Assembly (NCBI GenBank): GCA_027001995.1
Contig: JALTLO010000102.1
Span: 1 to 16,350 of the forward strand
Direction of reading: 5' to 3'
DNA: 16,350 nt
DNA from: Planctomycetota bacterium
GTDB lineage: Bacteria > Planctomycetota > GCA-002687715 > DRQF01
How positions within the stretch are numbered: position 1 is the stretch's first letter; each line of letters starts with the position of its first letter. Below are positions 3 through 16,350 of this stretch, piece by piece. The translations under genes and the position numbers were made by a program. Under the pieces are notes generated by a model that was given only the letters and a program-made list of their open reading frames with translations, searched no databases and was not told the origin of the DNA.

Positions 3-293
3 TCTATCACTCTTGATGCGGCCGCAGGCGATATAAATCTTACTCCAGCTTCATCCTATGATATTAATGTTCCAGCAAACATTGGGTTAACTTTTGGTGA
101 TGATGGTGACATGGAGCTGTACCGGGAATCCAGCGATCCGGGGGCGAATCTGGTGGTGGTGAGCACCCAAGGAGTCGCCGTCGATGGGGATGAAGTGCGG
201 GCCAAGGCCATTATTTACGACAGATCCCGGGCTCTTTGCGGTGAACTAGGGCTTCATGTCCGGAATTTGCCGAATTCCCCGGGTTTGTCGTGA
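3..293 (+). CDS. Partial open frame running in from the window edge; first ~36 codons resemble a phage tail-fibre-like segment; possibly chimeric
   Basis: Frame 3 is open from base 3 to TGA 291-293: SITLDAAAGDINLTPASSYDINVPANIGLTFGDDGD-MELYRESS... Hand count gives about 43% GC over 1-110 and about 64% over 111-210. Confidence 0.3.
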   Translation, partial: SITLDAAAGDINLTPASSYDINVPANIGLTFGDDGDMELYRESSDPGANLVVVSTQGVAVDGDEVRAKAIIYDRSRALCGELGLHVRNLPNSPGLS

Positions 294-296
294 TCT

Positions 297-322
297 GAGA
301 ATATTACTTCAGCTTTGAGAAT
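297..322 (+). promoter_or_regulatory. Putative ECF sigma-dependent promoter (GAGAATAT-N14-GAAT) of the membrane protein-kinase-ECF-ZAS operon
   Basis: GAGAATAT 297-304, 14-nt spacer, GAAT 319-322; identical boxes and spacing at 4180-4205; 30 nt before ATG 352. Confidence 0.6.
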
Positions 323-351
323 CAGAGATGGAGTTTTTGGAGTTCGATGCC

Positions 352-1623
352 ATGTCTGCTTCGCAGAACAAAACTAGCGGTAGGTTGGGTAAGCTGTTCA
401 TGGGAGTTGTCTGCCTGTTGGGAATCGCTATTTCCCTTATGGCCTTCATGGTGGATCGCTTTTCGGTCCAAGCTCGAAACGATCTTCGTGTGGCGAATGA
501 AACTTCTCAAATGGCTCAGCAAATCAGGTCTCAGCGCAACTCCCGATCAGATACGCCTAACTCTCCTTATGCATCTGAGGATGTCCCATCCACTCTTTTG
601 GTTCATGATCAAGGGCGAGGAGAACAAGCTGCCAACAAGCTTGCAGTTCGAGAGAAAGTCTTCGAAGCCAAATCAGCGGAATTCTGGCAGCCGAACCGAG
701 CTCCCGAAGGTGGATACGACATAGAGCGCTCCATCGACCGGGCGGCGAGGGCCATAGCTAAACGAATTTGTGACGATGCTCATGAGCGGGCTCGGCGTGA
801 TTGGGAGATCGATACAATCGCGATCTCTGCTGATCCCAGTACCGGTGATTCCACCACGAATCGCAAAATTGTGCGGCGGGTGGCATCGCAAATTCGGGTG
901 CTGACCAATCTTTATGTAGCCGAAGGTGAGGAGTTGATTTCATCTCAGCTCTATCTGGTTTCGGGTCAGATGCGCTCGGGGTGGGGGCGGGTCATAGAGG
1001 CTGTGAGTGACGATAAACGTTTCGGCGTATCCGTGATTGTTGATGATAAGATGCTTCCCATGCTCGAGATTCCTAAGAACTGGGAGGGGCGCTGGGAGAT
1101 TAGTTTCCATACGGACAATCAGATGAGCGCGGAATTTGCTCGGGCTGATGCTATGGATGGTTTGTACGCCAGGATAGCCACCCGTCTGTGGATTATTGCC
1201 CGATCTGAAAACGATGTGGCACCAGAAGATAAAGACGAATTCATGATGTTGGTCAGGCGTCACTATCCCCTTGATCTTCTCGTGGGCATGGGACGTCGAG
1301 CTCTCCAGCCCATTCGTGTGATCATGGAAGATGAGGATGGAAACGCGGATGCTGTCTACTATCAAACTGAAGTCGTTTGGTCGGGGAAGAACAACCAGTT
1401 ACGAGGATACTCGGATGCCATCGCTGATATGATTCGCACACGCAAGCGCGCGCCATTTGTACGATTAGGCCTGTCTCTCGGTCTGTGCGTCCTATCGCTT
1501 TTGACATGGTTGAGGGTCGATTGGTGGTTGAAAGGTCACTATTCCCTCATGAACAAGGTTACATTTGTTACTCTAACAGCCTTCTTTGTGGCTGTTGTTT
1601 GGAATTACCCACTCCATGGTTAA
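352..1623 (+). CDS. Hypothetical membrane protein (one N-terminal TM, large probably extracytoplasmic domain, two C-terminal TMs); candidate sensor
   Basis: Long ORF (track start 328; ATG 352 preferred because GGAG 339-342 lies 9 nt upstream). Hydrophobic segments LFMGVVCLLGIAISLMAFMV, LGLSLGLCVLSLLTWL, VTFVTLTAFFVAVVW. Confidence 0.85.
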   Translation: MSASQNKTSGRLGKLFMGVVCLLGIAISLMAFMVDRFSVQARNDLRVANETSQMAQQIRSQRNSRSDTPNSPYASEDVPSTLLVHDQGRGEQAANKLAVREKVFEAKSAEFWQPNRAPEGGYDIERSIDRAARAIAKRICDDAHERARRDWEIDTIAISADPSTGDSTTNRKIVRRVASQIRVLTNLYVAEGEELISSQLYLVSGQMRSGWGRVIEAVSDDKRFGVSVIVDDKMLPMLEIPKNWEGRWEISFHTDNQMSAEFARADAMDGLYARIATRLWIIARSENDVAPEDKDEFMMLVRRHYPLDLLVGMGRRALQPIRVIMEDEDGNADAVYYQTEVVWSGKNNQLRGYSDAIADMIRTRKRAPFVRLGLSLGLCVLSLLTWLRVDWWLKGHYSLMNKVTFVTLTAFFVAVVWNYPLHG

Positions 1624-1705
1624 GTCCGAAGAAAAATTGACGGTTTCAGGGGTCTCCCCTCAAGTGGGCGACACCGCGCGTGACCTCAGCGAGAAAAGGC
1701 AAGAG

Positions 1706-2998
1706 ATGGATTGGGAAAGCTTCTTCACACACTATCGCAAGCCCGGTTTTATTCCAGGCTATGAGATCGTCAACAAGCTGGGCAGTGGTGTCTTTGGCGA
1801 GGTCTACAAGGCCCGCAAGGAATCCATCGGCAAGTTTTACGCCATCAAATTTCTGAAAGTCTCGGACGAAAAAGTCAGCGAGGCTATCTTTAAGGAGTTG
1901 GAGTCCCTTCGCTACTTTGCGCAGATTGACCACCCCCACTTGGTTAGCATTGAAGATCAAGGGGAAGTCATGGGGATTCCCTATATCGTCATGGGCTATG
2001 CCGGGGATAACACCCTTAAGAAACGATTGAAGGATGGGCCTCTGCCTCTTGCGGATGTGGCAGCTATCTTGCGTCAAGTTTGTTCTGGGGTTGCAGCGCT
2101 TCACGAAAAATCAATCATTCATTTTGATTTGAAGCCAGCCAATATTTTCATGAAGGGTGACCATGCTCGGGTGGGGGACTACGGACTTTCGAAATTGGTG
2201 AGCGAGTCTCACATGACCATGTCCATCGGTCGGGGTACGCCTTACTACATGGCTCCGGAAATGCTGACCCGTAAAGGCGATCATCGCAGTGATGTTTATT
2301 CTCTGGGGACCATCGTTTACGAGATGGTCACAGGGGACGTGCCCTTCAAGGGCGACAGCGAATGGGAAGTCTTGAAGAAACACGAGAGCGAGAATGTGTC
2401 TATTCCCGCCAATGTGGAAGAACCGTTTCGGAGTATCATTTTGCGGGCCATGGCCAAGGAACCGGACCAGCGGTTTCAATCGGCCTCTGAGATCCTTCAG
2501 ATGTTAGATGGCCACGCTGTTGTAGCTTCCACGTCAACCCCGACACCTATGCCCGCACCCACGAAAGACGATTCTTCACCACTAGGAGGAATCGTACCAC
2601 CGCCGTTGCCCATTAAGAAATTAGCTGCAGGGAGGCAGGCACGCCGGGTGGGGCGTCGAGTGCGCAAGAACCTTGAGGGCGTTTTGGAGCAGATCCAGTC
2701 TGCTGGGGGCGACGCTCGGAAAATCGTAGAAGGTGTGAAGAGGGGGATCCCCAAAAAGCCTCTGAGCGACTCCTTCTACTCGGACTTTGAAGAGCCAGAA
2801 GCTGCTCTCCAGGGGGGCGAAAAGCCAAAGAAACAGACTTTTATTCTGTTTCGACCCATAAAGGCTCTGTTTCGGGCTGTGTGTAAAGGGTTAGGCGTTT
2901 TCTTTACAAACTTTTTCCGCTACGCTCTCGTCATTGCAATTACGATTGGGCTCGCAACTCTGATTCACGCCGCTCTTGAGGGCCAACTCGGAAGCTGA
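1706..2998 (+). CDS. Hanks-type serine/threonine protein kinase, non-RD (HFD), with C-terminal membrane anchor
   Basis: GSGVFGEV glycine loop, YAIK lysine, IIHFDLKPANI catalytic loop, DYG, GTPYYMAPE, SDVYSLG; Pro/Thr-rich linker; C-terminal hydrophobic YALVIAITIGLATLIHAAL. Start ATG 1706 or ATG 1616 (just upstream of the previous gene's stop). Confidence 0.95.
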   Translation: MDWESFFTHYRKPGFIPGYEIVNKLGSGVFGEVYKARKESIGKFYAIKFLKVSDEKVSEAIFKELESLRYFAQIDHPHLVSIEDQGEVMGIPYIVMGYAGDNTLKKRLKDGPLPLADVAAILRQVCSGVAALHEKSIIHFDLKPANIFMKGDHARVGDYGLSKLVSESHMTMSIGRGTPYYMAPEMLTRKGDHRSDVYSLGTIVYEMVTGDVPFKGDSEWEVLKKHESENVSIPANVEEPFRSIILRAMAKEPDQRFQSASEILQMLDGHAVVASTSTPTPMPAPTKDDSSPLGGIVPPPLPIKKLAAGRQARRVGRRVRKNLEGVLEQIQSAGGDARKIVEGVKRGIPKKPLSDSFYSDFEEPEAALQGGEKPKKQTFILFRPIKALFRAVCKGLGVFFTNFFRYALVIAITIGLATLIHAALEGQLGS

Positions 2999-3037
2999 GC
3001 CCACGGATCGGTTTTCTGACAATGGATCACATGCACC

Positions 3038-3673
3038 GTGCCCAGAAATAAAAACGACTACGACATAGGGAAACTCCAAGATCACGATGAACGTGAGTGG
3101 CAAGATCTGCAAACGGACTACCATCGTCGCATCTACTTTTACGTGAAGCGTCAGGTTGGCAACCCAGACGCTGCGGAAGATGTCACGTCTGAAACTTTCT
3201 TGGGGGCTCTTCGAGGCATCGGACGCTTTGATGAGCGTTACAATATCGAACAATACCTGTTCGGAATCGCCCGCAAGAAAGCCATAGATTGGCTGCGAAA
3301 GTCAGGGCATGAAACCCAGATGTCCTCCAAAGACGATGATTCCTCCAGCTTCTTCGCCAGCATCCCAGCAGCGGGTATGTCACCCACGCAGCTCTCGATT
3401 GTTCGGGAGAAGATTGGGCGGCAACGGGGCGCTCTGGTGGAGATTCTCCAAGAGTATGTGGGCGACCTGTGGGAGTCTAGAGATTTTAGGCGGCTTAAGA
3501 CCGTCGAGCTTGTTTTCCTCAGGAATTGGAAGCATAAGCCCATCGCGGAACTGCTTGGCTATCAGGACGAGAAATCCGTTGCTGGTGTGAAGTTTCGGGC
3601 GATTCGTGATTTTCAGGATCGACTGAGAAATAGAGACCCGAATCATTCCCTATTTTCAAAGCTCTGGGAGTAA
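3038..3673 (+). CDS. ECF-type RNA polymerase sigma factor (kinase-associated, planctomycete-type)
   Basis: Sigma2 region (RIYFYVKRQVGNPDAAEDVTSETF...YLFGIARKKAIDWLRK) and sigma4 HTH (VELVFLRNWKHKPIAELLG...SVAGVKFRA); 211 aa, no regions 1 or 3; GTG start. Confidence 0.93.
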   Translation: MPRNKNDYDIGKLQDHDEREWQDLQTDYHRRIYFYVKRQVGNPDAAEDVTSETFLGALRGIGRFDERYNIEQYLFGIARKKAIDWLRKSGHETQMSSKDDDSSSFFASIPAAGMSPTQLSIVREKIGRQRGALVEILQEYVGDLWESRDFRRLKTVELVFLRNWKHKPIAELLGYQDEKSVAGVKFRAIRDFQDRLRNRDPNHSLFSKLWE

Positions 3674-3676
3674 ACC

Positions 3677-4090
3677 ATGTCAAATTGCCCACCAGCCAGC
3701 GACCTAGTTGACGCTGTTGAATCGGGGACTATGAACCTAGTTCTAGATGACCATGTTGAACTTTGCTCTGCTTGTCGATCTATGTTGTCGAGCTTGCGGG
3801 AAGAATCTGAAGGACTGACTATCAGTGTAGGTGACCTTTGGGTGAAGGAGCGCATTTCTTGCCCTCATCGTGATATTCTCTTGGCTTTCGTCAACAAGTC
3901 ACTCTCAAAGCAAGAGATGGACTACATTGACTTTCATCTCAACCAGATCGCCTGTCCCTACTGCCAAGCTGAGGCCACTGAGTTAGAGGATTTGATGTCC
4001 AAGGAAAGTGCAAAGAATCTGGAAGATTCCCTGGAGCGTTCCTTGCGTCGCTCAGCGGCTGTCTTGGCTGAAGAGAGGCAGGGTAGTTGA
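3677..4090 (+). CDS. Small soluble protein with two zinc-binding anti-sigma (ZAS)-like modules; putative anti-sigma factor
   Basis: C4-x21-H26-x3-C30-x2-C33 and C62-x24-H87-x5-C93-x2-C96; starts 3 nt after the sigma stop; no TM segment. Confidence 0.85.
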   Translation: MSNCPPASDLVDAVESGTMNLVLDDHVELCSACRSMLSSLREESEGLTISVGDLWVKERISCPHRDILLAFVNKSLSKQEMDYIDFHLNQIACPYCQAEATELEDLMSKESAKNLEDSLERSLRRSAAVLAEERQGS

Positions 4091-4133
4091 CTTAAGTTGT
4101 TTCGCAATCATTGCATACGAGCATCACAGTAAG

Positions 4134-4170
4134 AAGCGCTGCCAGGCCATCTGGCAGCGTTTTTTGTTTT
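4134..4170 (+). terminator. Rho-independent terminator of the kinase/ECF operon
   Basis: Stem CGCTGCCAG 4137-4145 / CTGGCAGCG 4151-4159, loop GCCAT, followed by TTTTTTGTTTT. Confidence 0.9.
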
Positions 4171-4179
4171 GAAATTGAA

Positions 4180-4205
4180 GAGAATATCTGTTGACCTCAT
4201 CGAAT
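4180..4205 (+). promoter_or_regulatory. Putative ECF sigma-dependent promoter (GAGAATAT-N14-GAAT) of the PspA-like gene
   Basis: GAGAATAT 4180-4187, 14-nt spacer, GAAT 4202-4205, just after a terminator; same boxes and spacing as 297-322. Confidence 0.6.
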
Positions 4206-4263
4206 GCTCCTTCAGTCCCGACCGACCATATGGGTCGGCCCAGCACACAAGGAGTTCGAAATC

Positions 4264-5097
4264 ATGTTCAAGAAATTGGCAATGACTGTCGTCGCCGCAT
4301 CTGTCTTGGCGTTCATTTTCTTAGGTAGTTCGGCCTTTAGCCACATTTCTCAAGGAGTGGGTTGGGTCAGAGGCCAAGTCGCAGAAAAGGTTCCAGTCGA
4401 ATATAAGTTGAAGAAGGCTCGTCAGGCCATCAAGGCAGCGGAGCCTAAGATCAGGAAATACAACCGCGATATCGCCGAGAAGCAAGTAGAGATTCGCTAC
4501 CTGGAGCGGGAATTGGCCCAGTTGAGGCATGAACAGGCCCAAGCCCGCCTCACCCTCAAAGCTCAATGGCAGACTCTGCAAGTGGAGAAAGCGTCTTATC
4601 GCTTCCTTGGTAATACAGTCAGCCGCAAGAGCATGCGCCAAGACGCTGCACTCCGGTTTCGCCGTTTGAAGTCTGGGGACCAATTGGTCGCCAGCAAGAC
4701 TGAGCGTTTGGCCGCACTTCAAAATGGGCTCAGCCATATCCATGAAGCTTTAGAAAGCTTAGGCAATAAACGAGAAGAATTGATCACCCTTTGTGACGTC
4801 TTGGAGGCCAAGATGCGTGAGACAGAGGCAAAGAAGGCCGCCACAATGGATATCTATGTCGATCAAGACCACAGCGACTTAGTGGAGGCCGCAGAAATCT
4901 TGGCCAATGTTGAGAAACAATTGGATGTGGAAATGCAAGTGATGGAAAATAATCGGCCTTTGCTGGGGGAAAGCCGTATCGTCATTGAGACGCCTTTGGA
5001 CTTGAACTCTCAAATTTCCTCCTATCTGGAAGGTGAGACCAGTGGAGATGCTGGTGAGGAATCCGTCATAGCGACGAGCTTGGTCGACGTGCGCTAA
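4264..5097 (+). CDS. PspA/IM30-like coiled-coil protein with N-terminal signal peptide or membrane anchor
   Basis: AAGGAG RBS before ATG 4264; MFKK plus hydrophobic LAMTVVAASVLAFIFLG; long K/E/Q/A/L-rich helical body with PspA-like segments (FSHISQGV...AEKVP; DHSDLVEAAEILANVEKQLD). The CDS is solid; the family call is by eye. Confidence 0.75.
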   Translation: MFKKLAMTVVAASVLAFIFLGSSAFSHISQGVGWVRGQVAEKVPVEYKLKKARQAIKAAEPKIRKYNRDIAEKQVEIRYLERELAQLRHEQAQARLTLKAQWQTLQVEKASYRFLGNTVSRKSMRQDAALRFRRLKSGDQLVASKTERLAALQNGLSHIHEALESLGNKREELITLCDVLEAKMRETEAKKAATMDIYVDQDHSDLVEAAEILANVEKQLDVEMQVMENNRPLLGESRIVIETPLDLNSQISSYLEGETSGDAGEESVIATSLVDVR

Positions 5098-5124
5098 AAT
5101 TAGACCTATGGTTCGCCAGAATGC

Positions 5125-5163
5125 AAAAAAGACCCCGGAGACCAGTGGTTCTCTGGGGTTTTC
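5125..5163. terminator. Rho-independent terminator, possibly bidirectional
   Basis: A6 tract 5125-5130, stem ACCCCGGAGA 5132-5141 / TCTCTGGGGT 5150-5159 (one G-U), then T run. Confidence 0.8.
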
Positions 5164-5277
5164 TCTTGGATTATGGCTTCGGAGCTGTCTTGTTGTGAGA
5201 TTTCTTGGCAATTTAGCCTAACCTGTTCGTGAGATCGTGAATAATTCGGGTCAAGCGAACAGGATAAAATGAGGCCC

Positions 5278-5305
5278 TTGCGACCATGGCGTGAAAGCTT
5301 AATAT
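5278..5305 (+). promoter_or_regulatory. Possible sigma70-type promoter
   Basis: TTGCGA-N16-TAATAT upstream of the GAGGAG RBS (5323-5328) and GTG 5335. Confidence 0.3.
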
Positions 5306-5334
5306 TCGTCAACCGAGGGTCTGAGGAGATAAGA

Positions 5335-6141
5335 GTGACTGATAGTACAAATAGCAAAGACGAAGCTCGCGATGAGCATGGTAATCTTCTGAGTCTTGCC
5401 AGCAAGGCAGACAGTCGGAAACCAGAAGACGTCCGCGATGGGGCCTGGCGTAAGGCTCGCATTGCCGCAGGCCACATGGTTGTCATCCGATCGCATTTTA
5501 AGTCCATCTTCTTGATCCCCCTAGCCATCATTTCCTTGGTTTGTGGCATTGCCGTGACCATGAATCCTGATGCTGACAATTGGCGTCACGCCTGGGGACT
5601 TATTTGGATTTTCGGTTTTATGTTCTACATGAACATTTTCATCTTTGAATGGAACCGTGCCTGGACCATCGTTCTCTTGGGAGGGATGGTGACCACGGTG
5701 GCCATCATGTTTGCCATAAATTCCGATGCCCTTCCGGTCTTCTCTGGGTTGTGGGACTGGCTCAAAGGCCTGAAATTAGATTTGAGTCCTCAGGCCTATA
5801 TGTTCTTCTTCATGTTTTTTGCCTTCTGCGCCGCTGTCTCGTGGATCAAAACCCGTTTGAATTATGTGGTGATCGAGCACAATGAGATGCAGATCTATCG
5901 CAATGCCTTCTTTGGCGACCGGGAACGTATCTCCATGATGAATCCACGGATTGAAGTCAAAGTTCAAGACATGGTGGAGTATTTCCATCCCTTCTATCGC
6001 TCAGGAACTGTTGTTGTTCATGCACCAACCAAGACGATTATCCTCGACAACGTTCTGGGCATTCGCAGAATTGAGCGGATCACGGATCGTCTGGGAAGCA
6101 CCTTGAGTGTCCGCGTTGAGAATGAAGGCCATCCCAACTAA
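5335..6141 (+). CDS. Multi-pass membrane protein (about 4 TM) with C-terminal bacterial PH-like domain
   Basis: GAGGAG RBS plus GTG 5335 (track start 5269); four hydrophobic segments, then a beta-rich tail YVVIEHNEMQIYR...SGTVVVH...IILDNV resembling bPH domains (by eye). Confidence 0.8.
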   Translation: MTDSTNSKDEARDEHGNLLSLASKADSRKPEDVRDGAWRKARIAAGHMVVIRSHFKSIFLIPLAIISLVCGIAVTMNPDADNWRHAWGLIWIFGFMFYMNIFIFEWNRAWTIVLLGGMVTTVAIMFAINSDALPVFSGLWDWLKGLKLDLSPQAYMFFFMFFAFCAAVSWIKTRLNYVVIEHNEMQIYRNAFFGDRERISMMNPRIEVKVQDMVEYFHPFYRSGTVVVHAPTKTIILDNVLGIRRIERITDRLGSTLSVRVENEGHPN

Positions 6142-6206: not shown

Positions 6207-6356
6207 AGGCTAACTCTTGGGGAACTCTCCCGTTGACTGCCTGAGCTATAGGGCATTCTGTCGATGAACTCTCGGTGTCAGAGAATGCTGATCTTTGGCC
6301 CCTGTGCATGCAAGAATCCGCTGCTACTATGGCGAAACACCTGTTGGAGTGAATCA

Positions 6357-8234
6357 TTGAAGGAAAAGACCGTTGAGCAGGACCATTATCGAGCTTCTGA
6401 ATGGGGCCAGGGATTCTTTCGGATCGACGGGGAAGGTTTCCTGCGTGTCTTTCCTCGTGGAGACGACGAACACTCTGTCAAGCTACAGAGTGTTGTTGAG
6501 AACTTAGCTCAGACCCATGTTGATACACCTCTGGTCGTACGGTTTCCGCAAATCCTGCTCAGCCGGCAAAAGCGTATTCGGGATGCTTTTTTGACGGCCA
6601 TTGACGAATATGGCTATCAGGCGACCTATCAAGGGGTTTTTCCAGTCAAAGTGAACCACAACCGCATCGTGGTGGATACTTTGGTTCAGGGTGGTAAAGA
6701 TCATGACTTTGGCCTGGAGGTGGGGTCGAAAGCCGAACTCTGCTTAGGGTTGACCTACGATCTGAGTTCTGGCGCATTCCTGGTCTGCAATGGTTTTAAG
6801 GACCGGGCATACTTAAGGCTTGCGTGTTTGGCATCGCAGGCTGGCCGCCCGATTCTGCTCATCGCTGAAAATCCTCAAGAAGTGTCAGACATCATCGAAA
6901 TCGGTGAATCTGTTGGGCATATGCCTATGCTGGGGTTTCGGGCTAGACTTCATGCTCAGGGGAGTGGCCGTTGGTTGGAGTCGTCTGGCCACAAAGGTAA
7001 ATTCGGCTTGTCCACCATGGCGATTCTGGAAGGAATGGAGGCTGTGAAGCGGGCCGGTTTTGCGAGCCGTTTGGTGGCGCTTCATTTTCATATCGGATCT
7101 CAAGTTTCAGATATCCTCAACATCAAAAGAGCAATCAAAGAAGCTTCTCGTTTGTTTGCGGCCATGAAGCAGAAAGCACCGAGTCTTCGAGTTCTTGATT
7201 TGGGCGGTGGCATGGGCGTTGACTACGATGGCAGCCGTACCGCCACGGATTGGAGCGTCAATTATTCGATCGAGGAATATGCTCGAGACGCAGTCTATAT
7301 GGTCAAGGAGATCTGCGATGAAGCGGAAGTCTCTGCGCCTATTCTCGTTTCTGAAAGTGGCCGGGCTTTGTGTGCATCCCACGCCGTTTTCGTTCTTTCA
7401 TCTTTGCGCGTCATTGGCGAGCATGAATCCAGGGACTACACCCATCATCGGACGACGGCGAACCAGATTGATGACCTGAAAGCTACTTTGTCAGAAGTCA
7501 ATGAGAGCAATTTTCGAGAAGCTGTCCACGATGCGACACAATTGCTCAATGAGCTGCTTTCCGGTTTTCGCTTGGGTTATGTGACCATGGATGAACGGGC
7601 TGTAGGCGAATGTCTGTATCGAGATATTTGCACCAAGGTTCGTAGTTTGATGATTGTGGAGCACAAACGAACAGACGACTTGGTTGATCTCGAAAAGCAA
7701 CTGGCCCCTAAGGTTGTTTGCAATTTCTCGGTTTTCATGTCGGCCCCAGATAGTTGGGCAGTGCAGCAGCTCTTCCCCATTTGCCCTTTGGCCCGAGCAG
7801 ACGAATCTCGTCGTTGGGCTGCAACCATTGGTGACATCACCTGCGACAGTGACGGCAAGCTCGATCGCTTTATCGGCAAGCGGGGTGTTGAACCCTATAT
7901 TCGATTGCCAGAGCCGGTAGAAGGGGAGCCCTACCACGTTGGCATGTTCTTAACAGGAGCATATCAAGATGTATTGGGCGACTATCACAATCTCTTCGGC
8001 ACGGTCAATGAGGTGGTCGTTGAACTGGACGAAGAGAACAAACCACACATTAAGACTGTCGTAGACGCTGCTACCGTGGAGCATTCCTTAGAACAGTTTG
8101 GCTTTTCATTTTCGGAGTTGGCTCAACGCTTCATGAAAGTCGAAGGACTGGAAGATGGAGGTGGGATCGACAGTACTTACCAGGATGCCTTTTTCAAAGT
8201 GCTAAAAGGTAATACCTATCTAAACAAGATTTAG
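6357..8234 (+). CDS. speA: Biosynthetic arginine decarboxylase (PLP, fold type III)
   Basis: GVFPVKVN (PLP lysine), GLEVGSKAEL, CNGFKD, GKFGL, LHFHIGSQ, DLGGGMGVDYDGS, SESGRA, DITCDSDGK, GAYQDVLGDYHNLFG. TTG 6357 preferred (GGAG 6346-6349; TG-N-TACTAT extended -10 at 6322-6330); track start 6264. Confidence 0.96.
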   Translation: MKEKTVEQDHYRASEWGQGFFRIDGEGFLRVFPRGDDEHSVKLQSVVENLAQTHVDTPLVVRFPQILLSRQKRIRDAFLTAIDEYGYQATYQGVFPVKVNHNRIVVDTLVQGGKDHDFGLEVGSKAELCLGLTYDLSSGAFLVCNGFKDRAYLRLACLASQAGRPILLIAENPQEVSDIIEIGESVGHMPMLGFRARLHAQGSGRWLESSGHKGKFGLSTMAILEGMEAVKRAGFASRLVALHFHIGSQVSDILNIKRAIKEASRLFAAMKQKAPSLRVLDLGGGMGVDYDGSRTATDWSVNYSIEEYARDAVYMVKEICDEAEVSAPILVSESGRALCASHAVFVLSSLRVIGEHESRDYTHHRTTANQIDDLKATLSEVNESNFREAVHDATQLLNELLSGFRLGYVTMDERAVGECLYRDICTKVRSLMIVEHKRTDDLVDLEKQLAPKVVCNFSVFMSAPDSWAVQQLFPICPLARADESRRWAATIGDITCDSDGKLDRFIGKRGVEPYIRLPEPVEGEPYHVGMFLTGAYQDVLGDYHNLFGTVNEVVVELDEENKPHIKTVVDAATVEHSLEQFGFSFSELAQRFMKVEGLEDGGGIDSTYQDAFFKVLKGNTYLNKI

Positions 8235-9131: not shown

Positions 9132-10502
9132 TTGCTTCTTTGTGAAGGCTTGAATGCCCAGGGCACTCCATGTCCCGGAAGGAATGATGACAATTTTAAC
9201 ACTGGGACCTGTTGTTCGAATGTCACCCCCGACTATGTCTTTCCTGCTGAATTTCCTCCGAACGGTATCATGAACTCTGGCTCCTATGCTTGCATTGAGA
9301 ATTGCGAATCGGTCACTTCCTTTGACACCACAGTGTTGCTACAGATGTTTCCTCATCCTGGTGTTAATGTCTTTTCAAACGGCCAGCCTGCTTGCGATGA
9401 AGTCGCCTTTGTTCTTCAAGTCCAAGAAACGAGTACTCCGGTCCCTGCGTTTAGCTTTTCCGTTGGTACCAACCCACCTGTAAATAATGTGCGTGGCAGT
9501 TTTCTCTCCGGTAAATATATGCGCACTTGGGTGACCATCGACGGGGATGGTTTCGTCCATCAATTTTGGCGTTTCCTCGTTTCGGGAGATGCGGTTTGGC
9601 AAAGTGGAGCGCGCCCCTGCCCAATCCCTCTTTGTGTTTCGACGTTCCAAGTGATGTCTATGCATGGCCATATTGATATCGAATGTACAGCCTTCAACCC
9701 TCACCTCGGGGAATACGGCTGGAGTTTCAACACTCAACTCACGCATTACGATGGTTGCTTGTCTCATATTAACATTCCTCAGAATCCCAGGAATTTGCCA
9801 CCATCACCCCCGAGGCATGATGGGATGTCCTATCACTTTGTGGCACCAGGTGGTTTTAGTTGGTTAGCGAATCCACCAGCTGCATCAGACCTCAATACGG
9901 CATCAAATCTTGATGCACTTCGTAGTACGGTGTCGCACATAACAACGACAATGGGCCAACCACCGCTCCAAGTGTGCCAATCAGAGGCAGCATTGCGCGC
10001 AGTGGGGTTGGCTGTTTCGGTGACATGTGCCTGTGGGCTACCCGGAGGTACCTATTACAATCAAAGTTGGCCTGGAGGTGGGCCCAATGACAATGCGGCC
10101 TTATGTCCATTGGGAGTCGAGTATCCCTGGTCGGCATTTCCTTTGGTCCCCGAGATTCCGACTGGCTTTGTTCAGCAGTACCTAGGAGAGTATCCTCCAT
10201 CGGTGGGAGTGCCCTACGTTTTGAGGGGTGTCAGGATCTTCTCCGTCATTGGCACGGTCAATTATGAAGACTTCTGTGACAAAAGGCCCCTTACTCAAAA
10301 GGAAACTACCCACGTTATTTTTGGGTCGAATCACATTTACGACCCTGAGCGCCAGAATGAGCCTATGCTGTTTGCGAGTTTTACGACTTTCGGCCCATCG
10401 ACGGACATGCTTTTGGACTTTGGCAATAATGTGACCGACATAGACGGCCTTCTCGCAGGGGAACCAGGTTGGACCAACATCTTATGGATGATCTCACGAT
10501 GA
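9132..10502 (+). CDS. Cys/Pro-rich secreted-type hypothetical protein; 5' leader appears frameshifted (possible pseudogene or assembly error)
   Basis: 456-codon ORF with 16 Cys and only 3 Lys. The RBS (GAGAGG 9108-9113) points to ATG 9122, which reads MKLFASL-stop in another frame; the long frame begins LLLCEGLNA/QG, like the end of a signal peptide. Confidence 0.8.
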   Translation: MLLCEGLNAQGTPCPGRNDDNFNTGTCCSNVTPDYVFPAEFPPNGIMNSGSYACIENCESVTSFDTTVLLQMFPHPGVNVFSNGQPACDEVAFVLQVQETSTPVPAFSFSVGTNPPVNNVRGSFLSGKYMRTWVTIDGDGFVHQFWRFLVSGDAVWQSGARPCPIPLCVSTFQVMSMHGHIDIECTAFNPHLGEYGWSFNTQLTHYDGCLSHINIPQNPRNLPPSPPRHDGMSYHFVAPGGFSWLANPPAASDLNTASNLDALRSTVSHITTTMGQPPLQVCQSEAALRAVGLAVSVTCACGLPGGTYYNQSWPGGGPNDNAALCPLGVEYPWSAFPLVPEIPTGFVQQYLGEYPPSVGVPYVLRGVRIFSVIGTVNYEDFCDKRPLTQKETTHVIFGSNHIYDPERQNEPMLFASFTTFGPSTDMLLDFGNNVTDIDGLLAGEPGWTNILWMISR

Positions 10503-12292
10503 ACAAAATTCGCATTTTTGTGGTGTGTTTGGGGTGCTGTGGTTTTTCACTGTTGGCGAAAGCCCAAAATACCTTCAACGTTCCCAGTGTGACCACACCC
10601 ACGATTCAATCAGCCATCGCACTTTCGGCTTCTGGTGACACTATCTTGGTTGCCGCCGGGACTTACCAAGAGAATCTCATTTGGCCGAACCATGACATTG
10701 TCATCTTAGGCGCTGGTATTGGTCAGAGTATTGTTGATGGTGGTTTGGTGGCACCTTGCGTGACTTACCCTGGGCCTTGCACCAATGCTTCGATCTTGGA
10801 CGGGTTTACCCTCAAGAAAGGCATGGGGGCACCCACGAACTACGGCTTCACGCCAGTTCCTGCCGGGGGAGGCCTTTACCTCAACAGCTTCGCGATTCCA
10901 GCACCGACTGTTCGCAACTGTGAGATCACCCAATGTGTGGCGAATCAAGCCGCGGCCATGTTGCTTTGGCGGGTGGGGTCGGCACAGTTTGAGAACTTAC
11001 ACATTCACGGTAATACGGTCTCCGCCATGGGATTGTCGGCCCCGAATATCATTGCCATTGATGTTTTTGCCCAAATTCAGCCTTTCCCGGCGGTCATACC
11101 TAGTTTTCGCAATTGTGTGATTGAGGGTCATAGCTACGTGCCGTCTCCCCCATCTCTTCTTGGCCGTTTGATTCATGTAAACAACGCGAGCATCCGCCTA
11201 AAAGGGTGTGAAATCAAGAACAACACGGTACCGGGTAGGATTATTGAACTGTCTCAAGCTGATCAAGTGATCATCGCTCAAAGTCGCTTCATTGGCAATA
11301 CGGTTGGTTCACCATTGTTGAATGGGAATGCAAATTCTTTGACGCTGAGGGATTGCCTCTTTTCGGGAAACAGTGGAGGAATAGGGGGCATCACCATTGG
11401 TCAAGGCACTGTTCTCAATTGTACGTTCGTAGGAAACCAAGGCCTCAATGTTCTTTTTGCTCCCGCTCCCTTTGTGATAGCAGGCAATTCAAACGCAAGC
11501 GTCACGAATTGTTTAATCTGGGACAACTATGATAGCAATGGTGCCGTGTTAGCAACACCGATCTTGGGCTCATCGGGAACACCTGCAATCACCAACAGCA
11601 ACATCCAAAACATGGGCGGAGTAGGAGTGGGAGGCATTGACGCAGATCCGCTCTTTGTTGATCCAGCCAATTCTGACTATCGTTTGCAGCCTGGGTCTCC
11701 TAGCCAAAACAGCGGTGCCAATAGCGGCAACTTTGTGTTGTCGGGGACGGACGTTCGCGGCTTGCCTCGGCTGCGACAAGGAGTGGTCGACATGGGATGC
11801 TATGAAAGCCAATCCATGGCTCACCATCCTGCAGCCAAAGGGCGCATTGGAGAACTCGTGGGTGGTCCTTACGACATTCTCGCCATCAACGGCACAGCCG
11901 GTGGCCCTTTGCGAAAAGTCGTCGTACCTTTGGGCTCGTCGTCAACCATGTCTATGCTTCAACCCTCCAATCTTCCTTTGCCCGCTAAGTTTGTGATTTT
12001 TGGTTTCCTCGGGGAAGCCAACTTTGACAGCGTTGTAAGCGTGCCCTTAGGCATTGGCAACATGATGTTTGCTCCTTCACCCTTAGTGCCACCATTCTTT
12101 CAGTCCATCTTCTTCATCTACACTGACAATTACAACACAGCTTCACCCCAGTTGGTCTCCTCCAACCCGACTCCATGGACCTCCGGTTTCGGCCCAACCA
12201 TTCCCTTTCCAATCACCCTCACCTTTCAAGGCGTCATAGAAGAATTAGGCACCTTTCGCCCAACGAACGCCATCATCTTCGAGGTGAAGTAG
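10499..12292 (+). CDS. Secreted right-handed parallel beta-helix (pectin lyase-like) protein with choice-of-anchor-Q-like segment and extra C-terminal domain
   Basis: ATGA overlap with the previous stop; signal peptide MNKIRIFVVCLGCCGFSLLAKA/Q; cap TIQSAIALSASGDTILVAAGTYQEN; repeats such as VRNCEITQC, LRDCLFSGN, VLNCTFVGN, VTNCLIWDN; DPLFVD...DYRLQPGSP...TDVRGLPR...VDMGCYE. Confidence 0.9.
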   Translation: MNKIRIFVVCLGCCGFSLLAKAQNTFNVPSVTTPTIQSAIALSASGDTILVAAGTYQENLIWPNHDIVILGAGIGQSIVDGGLVAPCVTYPGPCTNASILDGFTLKKGMGAPTNYGFTPVPAGGGLYLNSFAIPAPTVRNCEITQCVANQAAAMLLWRVGSAQFENLHIHGNTVSAMGLSAPNIIAIDVFAQIQPFPAVIPSFRNCVIEGHSYVPSPPSLLGRLIHVNNASIRLKGCEIKNNTVPGRIIELSQADQVIIAQSRFIGNTVGSPLLNGNANSLTLRDCLFSGNSGGIGGITIGQGTVLNCTFVGNQGLNVLFAPAPFVIAGNSNASVTNCLIWDNYDSNGAVLATPILGSSGTPAITNSNIQNMGGVGVGGIDADPLFVDPANSDYRLQPGSPSQNSGANSGNFVLSGTDVRGLPRLRQGVVDMGCYESQSMAHHPAAKGRIGELVGGPYDILAINGTAGGPLRKVVVPLGSSSTMSMLQPSNLPLPAKFVIFGFLGEANFDSVVSVPLGIGNMMFAPSPLVPPFFQSIFFIYTDNYNTASPQLVSSNPTPWTSGFGPTIPFPITLTFQGVIEELGTFRPTNAIIFEVK

Positions 12293-12517: not shown

Positions 12518-15500
12518 TCAATAGCTCAAGGAAACAACAGCATTGTGTGTGAGGAACCAGAGTTCGAAGCGTGGGGGCATTTCTTCGTCGGGGAATGTGC
12601 CTGCCACGGCGTCGCAGTAAGCAGACCCTTGGGCCCCGTATTTTTTGGCTCTGGCTGTCAGTTCTTCAACGTTGTTGAGCTGGTCCGTTTTGAAGTCCAC
12701 GACCACAAGTTGACCGGTTGCGGGGTCGCGGTAGAGCAGGTCAAGGGAGCCAACCACGTCTACTTCACCTTGCCGAACCAAAAGGGGGATCTCTCGGCCC
12801 AAGATTGAGGAAGAAAGACTTTGAAGCTTTGACAACAGGGGGCCTTCTTCCAGTATCTTGAGTCGGGCAGAGAAGGCCTCGCCGATGGCCTCTTGGTGGG
12901 TGGCAAACTCCTGACGGCTGAAGAAATGAGGCAGGGCTTGGAGAGATGACGCCAAATGTTCTTGGGTGCCTTCGTCAAGAGGGATGGTCTCCAAGATCCA
13001 GTGGATCGCTGTACCAAGATTGTTGGCAACTTGGCTTACACCCTCAGGCAGGGGGGCAGGCCACAAAAGAGCAGAGGTCTCGGTGAGTTTGGCGGTTGCT
13101 TGGCCCACATGGGTATGAGGCAAGGCGGAGGCATTTATGGGCGACTCAAGTGAGACAAAAGAAGCTGCAGCTTTTTGTCGTTTTTCTAACTCTTCTAAAT
13201 CTGCCCGGTATTTGGGTTTTTTTTCTCCTGTAGCAACTCTTACCTCGTGAGCTGCCAGTCTCTGATGGTCTGGGAGAATCCAAGAAACATGGGTTCCTTG
13301 GGAGCAATCCTTGACGGGATTGTCGAGGTCTTCATTCGCAGAGAGTGCTAACCATCCTTGGTAGACCCCTCGCCGGTGACGGAGCAGATCGACGATGTTA
13401 CTACACTTGTCTAATTCTTGGACTTCCTTCGAGTCTTCTGGCCAAAGGCCGCAGAGGACCAAACGGTGGGAGGCTCTGGTGACCGCCACGTAGAGGGCAC
13501 GAATGGTCTCTGCCCGGGATACGGCTTCATCATGTTGGGTTAAGTGATTGAATTCTGGGGTTTCTGCCCCAAAGAAACGGACACCCCATGTCCCCGGACG
13601 GTGCAAGACGCGATCTCCGGGAGAGCCTCCTCGATGCCCTTGGTGAAGGGCCACAAAATAGACATGGTCGAAATCAAGCCCTTTGGATTTGTGGACACTC
13701 ATGACGCGGACAGCGTCTGAAGTCTCGTCTCCTGGGGAGGCCTCTTCCATATCAATGGCCGCGACCATGTCAGAGCGAATGAGCCGAAGGGCTTCACCTC
13801 GCCCGAGATCTGGCCGAGCCAGCAAATCTTGGGCGAGATCGAAGAACCGTTGGATGTTTGCCAAACGATGGGTCCCCAGGAAACGTGCGCTTTCTTGAGC
13901 TTCAATGAGCAGCTGGCGTTTCAGCTTGGTGAAGAACAGGTCAACACTGTCGACTTGGAAGGATGCGCGCAAAAGTCCAATGTCGTGGATAGACTTCTTG
14001 AGCAAAAGAGCCCAGTTGGGAAGCCGTTCAATACCAGGAATGTTGCCCTGTGGAAGTCTGTCGACTTCATCGATTAGGGCGAGGATTTCATCGGTCAATT
14101 TGTCGTTTTGCCCATGGATGGCTGACAGCTTTTGGGGCAGGAAACGTTGCCATAGGGGCAAGAGCATCCCGTCTGGGACACCTACGAAGTTGGAACGAAG
14201 AAATCCCAACATGGCAACTTGGTCGAAAGGGTCCAGAATGGCCGTGAGAGCATTAGTGGCATCAATCACCTCACGACGCTTGTAGAATTGTTTGTCCTTT
14301 TCTACCAAGTAGGGAATGCCAAGATCTCGCAGAGCAGAGAGGTAGACCTCTTGTTGTGTTGTTGCCCTCATCAAGATTGCGAACGACGAAAAATCTTTTC
14401 CGTCTTGATGGTGAAGTTGGTGGATCTCCTGGGCGATGGCCGCCGCTTCGATGTGCCGGGCGCGATCGGCAGATGTTTTTGCTGCCAGCTTGTGGTCTTC
14501 TTCAGGGCGCCTGGGGAAGCGTGCCCAGGAGTTCCAGAATTCGATGGGCCGCCGACCGTGGGCATCTTGGTAGCAGTTATCTGATTTTGCTGCGGGACAA
14601 AGGAGCTTTTCGAACTCTGGCTGAAGACCCTCTTCAAATTGCATGACCGGCCCGACAATTCGCTCAACTTCATCGAGAATAGGGGGGTCGGAGCGAAAGT
14701 TGATACTCAAGGACCGTCGCTGGCCCCCGTGACTTTCGATCTCCCGAATGAAGGCGCCATAAGCTCCCAAGTCAGCTCCACGAAACCCGTAGATCGTTTG
14801 TTTGGGGTCACCAACGACAAAGAGGTTGGGGCCGTTGTCGCCTTCGAAGGCCAAACTCCGGACAATGTCGTATTGGAGGGGGTCGGTGTCTTGCACCTCA
14901 TCTACTAAGAGTTGGTCTATGCCTTCTTGCATCTTGCGAAGTACGTCTTCGTGGTCTCGAAGTAAGTTGCGACACTCCAACAAAAGGTTGTTGAACGTGA
15001 GGACTCCTTGCTGTCGAAGCCTTGTCCGCACTTGGGTCGTGAGTCGGAACAGAATGCGAAAGGCGGGACGCAAGATTTCTGGGTCCCAGGAGCTCACCGA
15101 CTTAAGGGCTGGTAGTAAATTCTTCGACAGATCCTGGAGATTCTCAGGATTGAGGGAGTTCTCCTCTAAGGCTCCTGACTCGGTCTTGTTGGGGCCTTTT
15201 TTTGCCCATTCGGTGATCTTCTTGTGGGTGCCATCCAAGTCAAGATCGGCCATAGATGCCAACAGCTCATCCGCAGACTTGGAGTTGGCGATTTTGTTGG
15301 CAATCTCGCCCAGGCTGAGGACACAATCTTTGGCCTTGTTGAGGTGTTTCTTTGTGGAAGTTGTCAGCGCTGGATGACAAAATTCAACAAACGTACGCAA
15401 CAAGTCGGCCAGATCTTTGGCAGTGGCGGCACATACATCGTCCGGGTAAGGGTCGGATTCCAAGAAGCTCGTTGGCAGATTTGCATTGATGACAAGAGAG

Positions 15501-16132
15501 AGTGTTTCTTCTATCCTAGTTGCTCCGAAACCATTAGTGATGAGGTGAGCACTCTCTGGATTCACTTCCCCGTCTAAGTCTTCAGTCAGCCATTGGGATA
15601 GGACGTCTCCCATGGCATGGGCCACTAAGGTGCCGTCGGCGTCGACCTCGAATGCTGGGTGAAGGCCTGCTGCCAAGGCATTGTCAGCCAATGTCCGGCG
15701 GCAAAAGGCGTGGATGGTTTCGATATGAACTCGGTCTAATTGGGACAAGATGGACTTGGCCCGGGATGCGGCTAAGGTGGGGGATGGCAAGTCTTGGGGA
15801 TCAATGCCGACGACAGCCTCACCAGCGATAATACTGAGGGTCGCTTGGGCGAGCCTTTGGCTCATTTCGACTGAGGCTTTCTCGGTGAACGTAATGGCGA
15901 CGATGCCATCCAAAACCGAAGCGGCAATGCGCTCTTGTCCAAAGTCGGCATGAAGGTCGCTCTTTGCCAGCCAACCTGGACCCAAGGCCCAACAAAGGAC
16001 ACGGGCTACCAAAGTGGCAGTTTTCCCTGTGCCCGCTCCCGCTTCCAACACCAGAGGCTGGGAGAAGTTCGTCTTGGCAAGCTGTCGTGCTTCTTGGTCT
16101 TCTTGGCGCAGGACTCCGTCGCTCTGGATCAT
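12518..16132 (-). CDS. addA: AddA/RecB-family ATP-dependent helicase-nuclease
   Basis: UvrD motifs AGAGTGKT, ITFTEKA, TIHAFC, LVDEVQD, VGDPKQTIYGFRGA, NFRS, MSVHKSKGLDF, LYVAVTRA; C-terminal PD-(D/E)xK nuclease GTAIH...GSLDLL...VVDFKT. ATG 16132 overlaps the upstream stop (ATGA). Confidence 0.93.
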   Translation of the reverse strand: MIQSDGVLRQEDQEARQLAKTNFSQPLVLEAGAGTGKTATLVARVLCWALGPGWLAKSDLHADFGQERIAASVLDGIVAITFTEKASVEMSQRLAQATLSIIAGEAVVGIDPQDLPSPTLAASRAKSILSQLDRVHIETIHAFCRRTLADNALAAGLHPAFEVDADGTLVAHAMGDVLSQWLTEDLDGEVNPESAHLITNGFGATRIEETLSLVINANLPTSFLESDPYPDDVCAATAKDLADLLRTFVEFCHPALTTSTKKHLNKAKDCVLSLGEIANKIANSKSADELLASMADLDLDGTHKKITEWAKKGPNKTESGALEENSLNPENLQDLSKNLLPALKSVSSWDPEILRPAFRILFRLTTQVRTRLRQQGVLTFNNLLLECRNLLRDHEDVLRKMQEGIDQLLVDEVQDTDPLQYDIVRSLAFEGDNGPNLFVVGDPKQTIYGFRGADLGAYGAFIREIESHGGQRRSLSINFRSDPPILDEVERIVGPVMQFEEGLQPEFEKLLCPAAKSDNCYQDAHGRRPIEFWNSWARFPRRPEEDHKLAAKTSADRARHIEAAAIAQEIHQLHHQDGKDFSSFAILMRATTQQEVYLSALRDLGIPYLVEKDKQFYKRREVIDATNALTAILDPFDQVAMLGFLRSNFVGVPDGMLLPLWQRFLPQKLSAIHGQNDKLTDEILALIDEVDRLPQGNIPGIERLPNWALLLKKSIHDIGLLRASFQVDSVDLFFTKLKRQLLIEAQESARFLGTHRLANIQRFFDLAQDLLARPDLGRGEALRLIRSDMVAAIDMEEASPGDETSDAVRVMSVHKSKGLDFDHVYFVALHQGHRGGSPGDRVLHRPGTWGVRFFGAETPEFNHLTQHDEAVSRAETIRALYVAVTRASHRLVLCGLWPEDSKEVQELDKCSNIVDLLRHRRGVYQGWLALSANEDLDNPVKDCSQGTHVSWILPDHQRLAAHEVRVATGEKKPKYRADLEELEKRQKAAASFVSLESPINASALPHTHVGQATAKLTETSALLWPAPLPEGVSQVANNLGTAIHWILETIPLDEGTQEHLASSLQALPHFFSRQEFATHQEAIGEAFSARLKILEEGPLLSKLQSLSSSILGREIPLLVRQGEVDVVGSLDLLYRDPATGQLVVVDFKTDQLNNVEELTARAKKYGAQGSAYCDAVAGTFPDEEMPPRFELWFLTHNAVVSLSY

Positions 16133-16350
16133 GATTGATTCTCCAATTGTTTCGTTACGTAGCCCGAGAGATTCCAAAGATCGGCGAGCAAGGAGGGTGT
16201 TTCTTCTTCTTCCGTATGGGCCAATTGGCTGAGTCTCCGTTTGGCACCACTGTCATTCTGGAGGCATGCGGAACGGACCGAGCAGTAGTCGCAGTTCTTA
16301 TTCGTTGTGCCATCACTTTCTTCCAAGCGGGGGGGGAATGTGCCCTGGTG
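16129..16350 (-). CDS. addB: 3' end of AddB-family nuclease subunit (partial, continues beyond window)
   Basis: Frame open from the window edge: HQGTFPPRLEES...CDYCSVRSAC; C-x2-C-x5-C matches the C-terminal Fe-S ligands of AddB; coupled to addA by an ATGA overlap. Confidence 0.85.
   Translation of the reverse strand, partial: HQGTFPPRLEESDGTTNKNCDYCSVRSACLQNDSGAKRRLSQLAHTEEEETPSLLADLWNLSGYVTKQLENQS

Follow-up and report, generated by a model that had tools for sequence, protein, structure and literature searches.

How is an extracytoplasmic function (ECF) sigma factor controlled when a Ser/Thr kinase and a zinc protein are both encoded beside it? The question is raised by a stretch of 16,350 nucleotides (the window, meaning the whole of the DNA analyzed here) from a Planctomycetota bacterium, contig JALTLO010000102.1 of assembly GCA_027001995.1. 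Its left end carries a cluster of six genes for a TPR-FHA protein (g0), a membrane protein (g1), a Hanks-type kinase, an ECF sigma factor, a soluble zinc protein and a long coiled-coil protein (Table 1). Kinase-linked ECF groups typically have no anti-sigma factor, according to those sections of the ECF classification that describe them (PMC7826278), and the control of kinase-linked ECFs with an intact DAED motif is left open in reviews (PMC7826278, PMC8999054). This cluster offers an answer that can be tested, since its anti-sigma factor is always co-inherited, it has a promoter consensus with target genes, and particular residues can be named as candidate phosphosites. We consider it reasonably probable that it encodes a dedicated Planctomycetota envelope-stress circuit, in which a kinase-released anti-sigma factor governs a SigW/Psp-like output.

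Table 1. Features of the cluster, numbered from the first nucleotide of the window.
Feature	Position	Strand	Evidence or remark
3' end of g0 (TPR-repeat and degenerate FHA gene)	96..293, start approximate	+	tblastn and profile matches
ECF-type promoter site in the g0-g1 gap	297..322; AATA 300-303, GAAT 319-322	+	
Membrane protein g1, candidate sensor	328..1623, likely start 352	+	putative sensor role
Hanks-type Ser/Thr kinase	1616..2998 (alternative start 1586)	+	Pfam Pkinase E 1e-49
ECF sigma factor	3038..3673	+	Sigma70_r2 E 1.6e-15; single copy
Soluble zinc anti-sigma-type protein	3677..4090	+	zinc motifs, fold, predicted complex
Intrinsic terminator hairpin and T run, 3' of the anti-sigma gene	4132..4170	+	
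ECF-type promoter site preceding the coiled-coil gene	4180..4205	+	
Membrane-anchored long helical hairpin (coiled-coil) protein	4264..5097 (alternative start 4204)	+	
Terminator-like hairpin 3' of the coiled-coil gene	5128..5165	+	

The six-gene cluster is conserved across Planctomycetota. Co-occurrence was sampled in 301 genomes, with loci chosen through ECF or zinc-protein matches, and synteny counts are conditional on those. Outside the source genome, 33 loci possess the window-type order (type A), several of them ending at a contig edge. An earlier note, made from the letters of this DNA, had described a self-contained set of five open reading frames in two units, both headed by the same bipartite motif, and had proposed tracing their synteny through the phylum. 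The five frames lie on the forward strand, and both hairpins are stabler than 200 of 200 shuffles (4125-4175, z -6.2; 5120-5175, z -3.8). The order kinase-ECF-zinc protein-coiled coil is kept in 23 of the 33 type A loci, the five-gene order in 19 and all six genes in 16. The set is not self-contained, since the conserved TPR-FHA gene ends directly upstream of it. All six families are single-copy in the source genome at strong E-values. Other families possess a second arrangement (type B), ordered coiled coil, FHA, multi-pass RD kinase, membrane protein and ECF; here the zinc domain may be part of the ECF, lie next to it or be encoded elsewhere. The type B kinase lies two genes upstream of the ECF in 10 of 17 cases; 6 ECFs stand alone and one is cut by a contig end.

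What holds the sigma factor? The earlier note took the zinc protein for an anti-sigma factor, and co-occurrence, fusions, a predicted complex and the best fold matches all bear this out. ECF profile matches were detected in 51 of the 301 genomes and zinc-protein matches in 53, the overlap being all 51; the two extra genomes have fused ECFs that score below the cut-off. Of the 51 genomes, 36 have the two genes side by side or fused, and 15 (all of family f7) retain both at distant places. Because related genomes are not independent, this co-occurrence is not a statistical test. In 14 of 43 homologs the zinc domain is fused in-frame to the ECF, and in one of these 14 it sits on a frameshifted ECF (L105:7327-8439, where the ECF occupies two reading frames through a frameshift or an assembly error and the zinc domain is fused to the second piece). 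By this computation, sigma factor and zinc protein are an obligate pair.

Zinc-associated anti-sigma (ZAS) proteins carry the motif C/H-x23-26-H-x3-C-x2-C. The window protein has two zinc repeats near this form, C4/H26/C30/C33 (H-x3-C-x2-C, preceded by C-x21) and C62/H87/C93/C96 (H-x5-C-x2-C). The second is invariant in 43 of 43 homologs, but only 19 of the 43 retain the first, so the description "dual ZAS" given in the earlier note is true of the window protein and fails as a trait that defines the family. Pfam zf-HC2 matches 6 of 26 family members, the window protein not among them. Its structural model (predicted local distance difference test, pLDDT, 93.5) has as its four best VIA matches the anti-sigma domains of RslA, RsiW, the SigK partner and RseA, and four of the five best Foldseek matches are anti-sigma factors, at E 3.9-5.2. 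For the complex with the sigma factor, the prediction proposed in the earlier note scored 0.82 against 0.00 for the best control, with at least 92% of contacts shared between runs and a pLDDT of 85 or more for the partners. It passes a mark reached by 116 of 157 solved pairs and by 2 of 215 mismatched ones; for alignments of this kind, these figures are only rough. The predicted interface joins sigma residues 43-59 (region 2.2) and 172-192 (region 4) to anti-sigma residues 61 and 125-127, so that the modeled zinc protein covers the faces with which the sigma factor binds polymerase and DNA, as expected of a ZAS protein. Two points tell against these structural results: the VIA matches are weak (Z 5.1-5.8, root-mean-square deviation 1.8-8.5, 44-70 residues aligned), with Z-scores inside the range of common arrangements, and the complex may pass partly through likeness to solved sigma/anti-sigma pairs. 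Taken with the gene pairing, computation strongly supports a zinc protein that behaves as an anti-sigma factor holding the ECF sigma. A C-terminal Leu-x-x-Leu-Trp helix of the ECF (3650-3673) resembles the helix that precedes the conserved Cys of the anti-sigma factor (3820-3860). Fused forms have one copy of this helix type and locus L073 has both, which suggests that ECF and anti-sigma factor were separated by fission with helix duplication.

How might the sigma factor be freed? We propose that the ECF sigma would be intrinsically able to bind RNA polymerase and would be held by the soluble anti-sigma factor. A membrane signal, presumably envelope stress and probably read by g1, would activate the co-inherited kinase, which would release the sigma factor, most likely by phosphorylating the anti-sigma factor at interface residues S61 and S126, and might also phosphorylate T117 in the sigma linker. 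Free sigma would then read AATA-N15/16-GAAT in the cluster, ahead of g0, g1 and the coiled-coil gene, and so feed back positively; it would also read the motif at unlinked genes, among them an SPFH and zinc-ribbon operon. The output would be a membrane-protecting set working like the SigW-controlled pspA-ydjGHI genes, with the TPR-FHA protein as a possible scaffold or modulator. Both routes of phosphorylation have precedent in the relevant passages of the literature: SigH and SigE are released when PknB phosphorylates the ZAS anti-sigma factor of each (PMC8999054, PMC13147305), and EcfK needs a phosphosite in its linker, T106 (PMC13147305). That the anti-sigma factor is the main target of the kinase is close to an even call, on the lower side.

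The sigma factor itself speaks to this choice. It is an ECF by TIGR02937 (53.2 bits across residues 20-177, cut-off 42.9), with a divergent region 4 that has no Pfam match. It and its relatives retain the acidic (DAED-type) pair of region 2.2, with E in 44 and D in 48 of 50 ECFs and Ser at the E position in one. Phospho-activated ECFs replace this acidic motif, as stated in the passages on them (PMC8999054, PMC8103513), and its retention means that activation in the style of ECF43 or ECF59 is not supported. The ECF43-type activation considered in the earlier note is rejected on this ground, the acidic residues being kept. The resemblance to ECF59 that the note saw fails too. In the supplementary description of that group the kinase lies at +1 and the -35 element contains TC (PMC7826278); here the kinase is upstream in every locus with both genes (at -1 in the window), and TC is absent from the invariant -35 core, the consensus being (G/A)AATA(T/A)(C/T).

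Could the kinase and the anti-sigma factor instead serve two separate inputs? In such an AND gate, the kinase would activate the sigma factor at T117 in the linker between sigma2 and sigma4, and the anti-sigma factor would respond separately, for example to the loss of zinc or to thiol oxidation. Among 50 ECFs, 74% have Ser/Thr at linker position 117 and 58% at position 115. EcfK depends on phosphorylation of its linker (PMC13147305), and all four second-site zinc ligands are invariant. A sigma factor that keeps its acidic pair should bind polymerase without a phosphate, however, and both S61 (98%) and S126 (95%) of the anti-sigma factor, each inside the predicted interface, are better conserved than the linker. 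We regard the AND gate as unlikely.

The release model depends on a kinase that responds to the membrane. The cluster kinase is of Hanks type, with the Gly loop, catalytic Lys and Asp, DxG and APE motifs; its ATG at 1616 overlaps the g1 stop, and the conserved kinase domain starts at 1706. The catalytic motif is HFD (non-RD) in 29 of 31 type A kinases and HRD in 11 of 11 type B kinases, and none of the 40 other kinases of the source genome has HFD. The window kinase has a C-terminal membrane anchor and no outside domain, so sensing would have to come from elsewhere, and g1 is the candidate. It has an N-terminal transmembrane segment, a variable extracytoplasmic domain and a conserved C-terminal hairpin of two transmembrane helices that is common to type A and type B membrane proteins. 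Its family profile finds 32 open reading frames in both cluster types, and none of its Atlas neighbors has a name. Within the window, g1, the zinc protein and the coiled-coil protein match no Pfam or NCBIfam family above cut-off. The FHA domain of g0 is recognizable by sequence. The part on contig C18 matches Pfam FHA (E 7.5e-5) and TPR_14, PF00498 matches 10 of 21 family members (best E 1.4e-9), and the family profile matches the FHA domains of KIF1B, EssC and GarA. FHA domains bind phosphothreonine through residues in G-R and S-x-x-H. In the g0 rows viewed, the Gly is invariant and is followed by N, S, A or H instead of R, and the His is nearly invariant; without the usual Arg, phospho-reading by this FHA domain is doubtful.

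A different arrangement would place the kinase and its companions downstream, as an output module of the sigma factor rather than a relay to it. Promoter sites before g0, g1 and the coiled-coil gene would make all of these targets, the FHA domain lacks the Arg of the canonical motif, and the parts of the cluster are separable, which counts against the circuit we favor. Two small genomes (L038, L041) have the ECF and anti-sigma factor with neither an adjacent kinase nor a coiled-coil gene; family f8 has FHA, kinase and fused ECF with a coiled-coil match in 0 of 7; the lone type B ECFs likewise persist with no neighboring kinase; and locus L107 keeps a coiled coil-FHA-kinase block away from the ECF. 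Against the output module, the soluble anti-sigma factor has no membrane input of its own, and kinase and ECF lie at most two genes apart in two different gene orders, with clade structure common to both. Type A and type B ECFs form one clade against 17 other ECFs of the source genome (support 99), in a quick tree whose careful search is unfinished, with L015 and L105 excluded and an outgroup from one genome. The 28 sampled cluster kinases likewise form one clade against 40 other source-genome kinases (FastTree 99), again with an outgroup drawn from one genome. We judge the output module distinctly less probable than a kinase that acts on the sigma/anti-sigma pair, and quite unlikely.

Which promoters does the system use? 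GAGAATA-N15-GAAT occurs exactly twice in the window, at the sites ahead of the two units (Table 1), against 0.01 expected; since g0 ends before the first of these, that site is an internal promoter. As the motif was read from the window's own sites, the real evidence is a held-out test outside the genus. The strict window-derived pattern, used for that test (a relaxed form was post hoc), was detected outside the genus in 8 of 23 upstream regions of the coiled-coil gene, 9 of 18 of g0 and 8 of 23 of g1 (after g0), where shuffles average 0.01-0.06. It precedes the ECF gene in 0 of 30 regions outside the genus. When 30 regions upstream of coiled-coil genes were given to an unseeded Gibbs search, a bipartite AATA/CGAAT motif emerged, and the window site was recovered. 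A matrix built from 38 sites outside the source genus ranks the three cluster promoters, the third being that before g0, 2nd, 3rd and 7th of 78 intergenic sites above 12 bits in the source genome. Thus the ECF-type promoter that the earlier note read as common to both units is supported by the held-out test and the matrix ranking, and AATA-N15/16-GAAT is a conserved promoter motif. The first genome-wide matrix was rejected for defining a regulon because it was too loose (785 sites above 13 bits against 268 in the reversed control). In L029 (5450-7117) and L030 (7627-9405), a gene on the opposite strand lies between the anti-sigma and coiled-coil genes, and the promoter motif of the latter is kept.

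The motif also leads to unlinked genes. An SPFH (Band_7_1)-GYF gene elsewhere in the source genome (G000:C94:35368-37600; L117 5368-7601, minus strand) carries it in 10 of 14 other genomes at a score of at least 12 bits, compared with 10 of 578 random upstream windows and 0-2 matches in each of five control gene sets. The site lies 71-81 bases upstream of the gene in most family members. A zinc-ribbon membrane gene follows 3' in the source genome and in 11 of 14 other loci; by computation, this SPFH and zinc-ribbon operon gives the motif at least one unlinked target operon. It lends weight to the membrane-stress flavor that the earlier note gave to the output. The top-scoring intergenic site belongs to a gene for a small GYF_2 membrane protein (G000:C200:66260-66805; L118 761-1306), which scores at least 12 bits at 9 of 14 other loci, two partial matches excluded, against the same background of random windows and control sets; three of these loci are no better than their best shuffle.

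Is the motif read by the cluster's own sigma factor? Autoregulation is usual among ECFs, in the section of the classification that treats it (PMC7826278), and from this together with the clade pattern we infer that it is. If a different sigma factor read it, the cluster ECF would be a target like the others. That reading gains from the 17 or more further ECFs of the source genome, from a motif close in shape to ECF promoters in general, and from genome-wide matches that exceed the reversed control only 2-3 fold. Several observations sit poorly with reading by the cluster sigma: a second unseeded run, on 20 more distant loci outside the taxonomic order, returned a -35 box and an A/T-rich upstream element in another register, in place of the -10 box; the strict motif is found in no type B region; in G004 (81% complete) the SPFH site is present although the genome shows no clear ECF or anti-sigma ortholog; and two ECF-bearing genomes score below 12 bits at the SPFH gene. 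Set against a different sigma factor are the three sites within the sigma's own cluster and the way in which the motif tracks the type A clade, being absent from type B regions and also at the SPFH gene both in a genome without such an ECF and in a genome with the other cluster type. We therefore hold a different reader to be very unlikely, and the cluster sigma to be the probable one.

What would the coiled-coil protein do? Its model has helices at 2-42, 45-105, 121-194, 205-229 and 247-255, so that the first helix is followed by a long hairpin, whose tip is a beta-turn, and then by two short helices, in the order found in Vipp1. The six best Foldseek matches are all Vipp1 (E 4e-3 to 2e-2, none below 0.001). 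Comparison of deep profiles (147 and 117 sequences) by hhalign gave a collinear PspA alignment of 199 columns (P 7.5e-4), against P 0.11 and a probability of 0.5% for a reversed control. These results tip us slightly towards a PspA-derived effector. Much pulls the other way. The hhalign probability is low (25.5%, and 9.5% against a five-sequence PspA alignment), and Pfam PspA (PF04012) matches 0 of 24 family members. VIA places PspA at rank 24 (Z 10.8, root-mean-square deviation 2.0, 123 residues aligned) with generic coiled coils higher, and a second VIA comparison has neither Vipp1 nor PspA among the 50 matches listed. PspA is peripheral, bound to the cytoplasmic face through an amphipathic helix. 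Here a hydrophobic segment opens the protein in 140 of 147 members, and its N-side is basic in 121 of the 140, so the domain would point outward, unlike cytoplasmic PspA; on this sequence evidence the protein probably faces the periplasm. No PDB sequence matches it at E below 0.04, and its Atlas neighbors are without names or auto-named Smc-like. Weaker homologs (E 1e-51 to 1e-13) occur in 22 genomes without an ECF or anti-sigma match, including 6 of 6 in family f25.

The same anchor and orientation suit a periplasmic hairpin that regulates wall enzymes or tethers membranes in the manner of EnvC or SteB and has no descent from PspA. The EnvC, SteB and RipC chains score as well by VIA (Z 10.2-11.3) as PspA does, and the family lacks a Pfam PspA match. 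The length and collinearity of the PspA alignment speak against such a role, as do the Vipp1 helix order, the co-regulation with ydjI/ydjG-like genes and the absence of any PF04012 match in the source genome (92% complete) and 8 others of its family. This role is a substantial possibility, if a lesser one than PspA descent, and it is compatible with the circuit that we favor. Were the hairpin PspA-derived, a phylum known for its unusual membranes would possess an ESCRT-III relative that is anchored in the membrane and escapes Pfam. The most far-reaching form of the proposal is a phylum-wide, one-locus relay that would run from a membrane sensor through a dedicated non-RD kinase and a phosphorylated soluble zinc anti-sigma factor to the ECF, as the logic of ECF61-type sigma factors, leading to a membrane-anchored, periplasm-facing polymer of PspA/ESCRT-III descent with SPFH partners, and supplying the Psp system that these planctomycetes lack; as a whole, it is doubtful.

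How does the cluster compare with systems already described? ECF61 is likewise a planctomycete ECF with a conserved kinase, which its supplementary entry places at -2 with at least five transmembrane helices, naming no anti-sigma factor and describing the promoter as unconserved (PMC7826278). The type B sister loci fit this layout, with the kinase two genes upstream and 5-16 predicted transmembrane helices. The window clade does not: its kinase is at -1, non-RD and has one or two transmembrane segments, and it has an anti-sigma factor as well as a conserved promoter, in a comparison made by description. The ECF61 reference OJW24604.1 did not appear among the named matches. By that layout description we file the cluster as an ECF61-related variant, type A being the sister clade of type B. 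ECF43 (EcfP/PknT, EcfK/PknS) and ECF59 also have an ECF beside a membrane-anchored Hanks kinase and a conserved linker Ser/Thr, but they lack DAED or have Ser/Thr there and usually have no anti-sigma factor, whereas the window clade has both. [quoted passage not shown]

The earlier note suspected that this combination of kinase and anti-sigma control was undescribed. Mycobacterium tuberculosis SigH/RshA and SigE/RseA, soluble ZAS pairs acted on by PknB in the passages on them (PMC8999054, PMC13147305), show that the principle of a kinase with a zinc anti-sigma factor is not new. The difference is that PknB is an unlinked general kinase, whereas the cluster analyzed here is inherited as one and encodes the sigma and anti-sigma factors together with their kinase, the FHA protein and the candidate sensor, and the zinc motif has H-x5-C-x2-C spacing and an optional further repeat. 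Our literature search found no description of this cluster, and earlier planctomycete ECF groups (Wiegand 2020) may cover its neighborhood.

In Bacillus subtilis, the anti-sigma factor of SigW sits in the membrane, and its proteolysis sets SigW free. Its pspA-ydjGHI (samGHI) output, as far as the excerpts describe it, resembles the set found here in joining an ECF-controlled PspA-type hairpin to two partners, one of the Band 7/SPFH kind and one a membrane protein with a zinc ribbon. The SPFH protein YdjI and the zinc-ribbon protein YdjG work with PspA under SigW in the same excerpts (PMC8581546; bioRxiv 10.1101/2021.02.15.431232). In contrast, the hairpin here is itself anchored in the membrane and might point outward, and the SPFH operon is unlinked and GYF-fused, its likeness to YdjG/YdjI being that of a domain pair. 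A search of the source genome with PF04536, which we take to be the YdjH-linked family, gave no match. Orthologs occur in the cultured genera Gimesia, Blastopirellula and Polystyrenella, among the matches listed, so tests need no uncultured organism.

The window's left edge divides g0 between contigs. Its first 609 codons lie on C18, from 1829 down to 1; the body halts at that contig end and resumes near position 96 of the window, with roughly 8-10 codons unaccounted for. Across positions 1-95 the open frame continues with no alignment to the TPR-FHA family, and this contig start looks chimeric. At the far end, in the regions 9132-12292 and 12518-16177, two probable secreted proteins (one without a Pfam family and one a beta-helix) and a minus-strand UvrD/PD-(D/E)XK helicase-nuclease showed no link to the cluster. 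Directly 3' of the cluster lie a four-transmembrane protein without a Pfam family (g6, 5269-6141) and a speA-like arginine decarboxylase (6264-8234), found at that place in 12 and 13, respectively, of the loci covered from the same taxonomic order. Both were left out as cluster members, because a motif of at least 12 bits precedes g6 in 2 of 12 cases and speA in 0 of 13. In L038 and L041, speA lies directly 3' of the anti-sigma gene.

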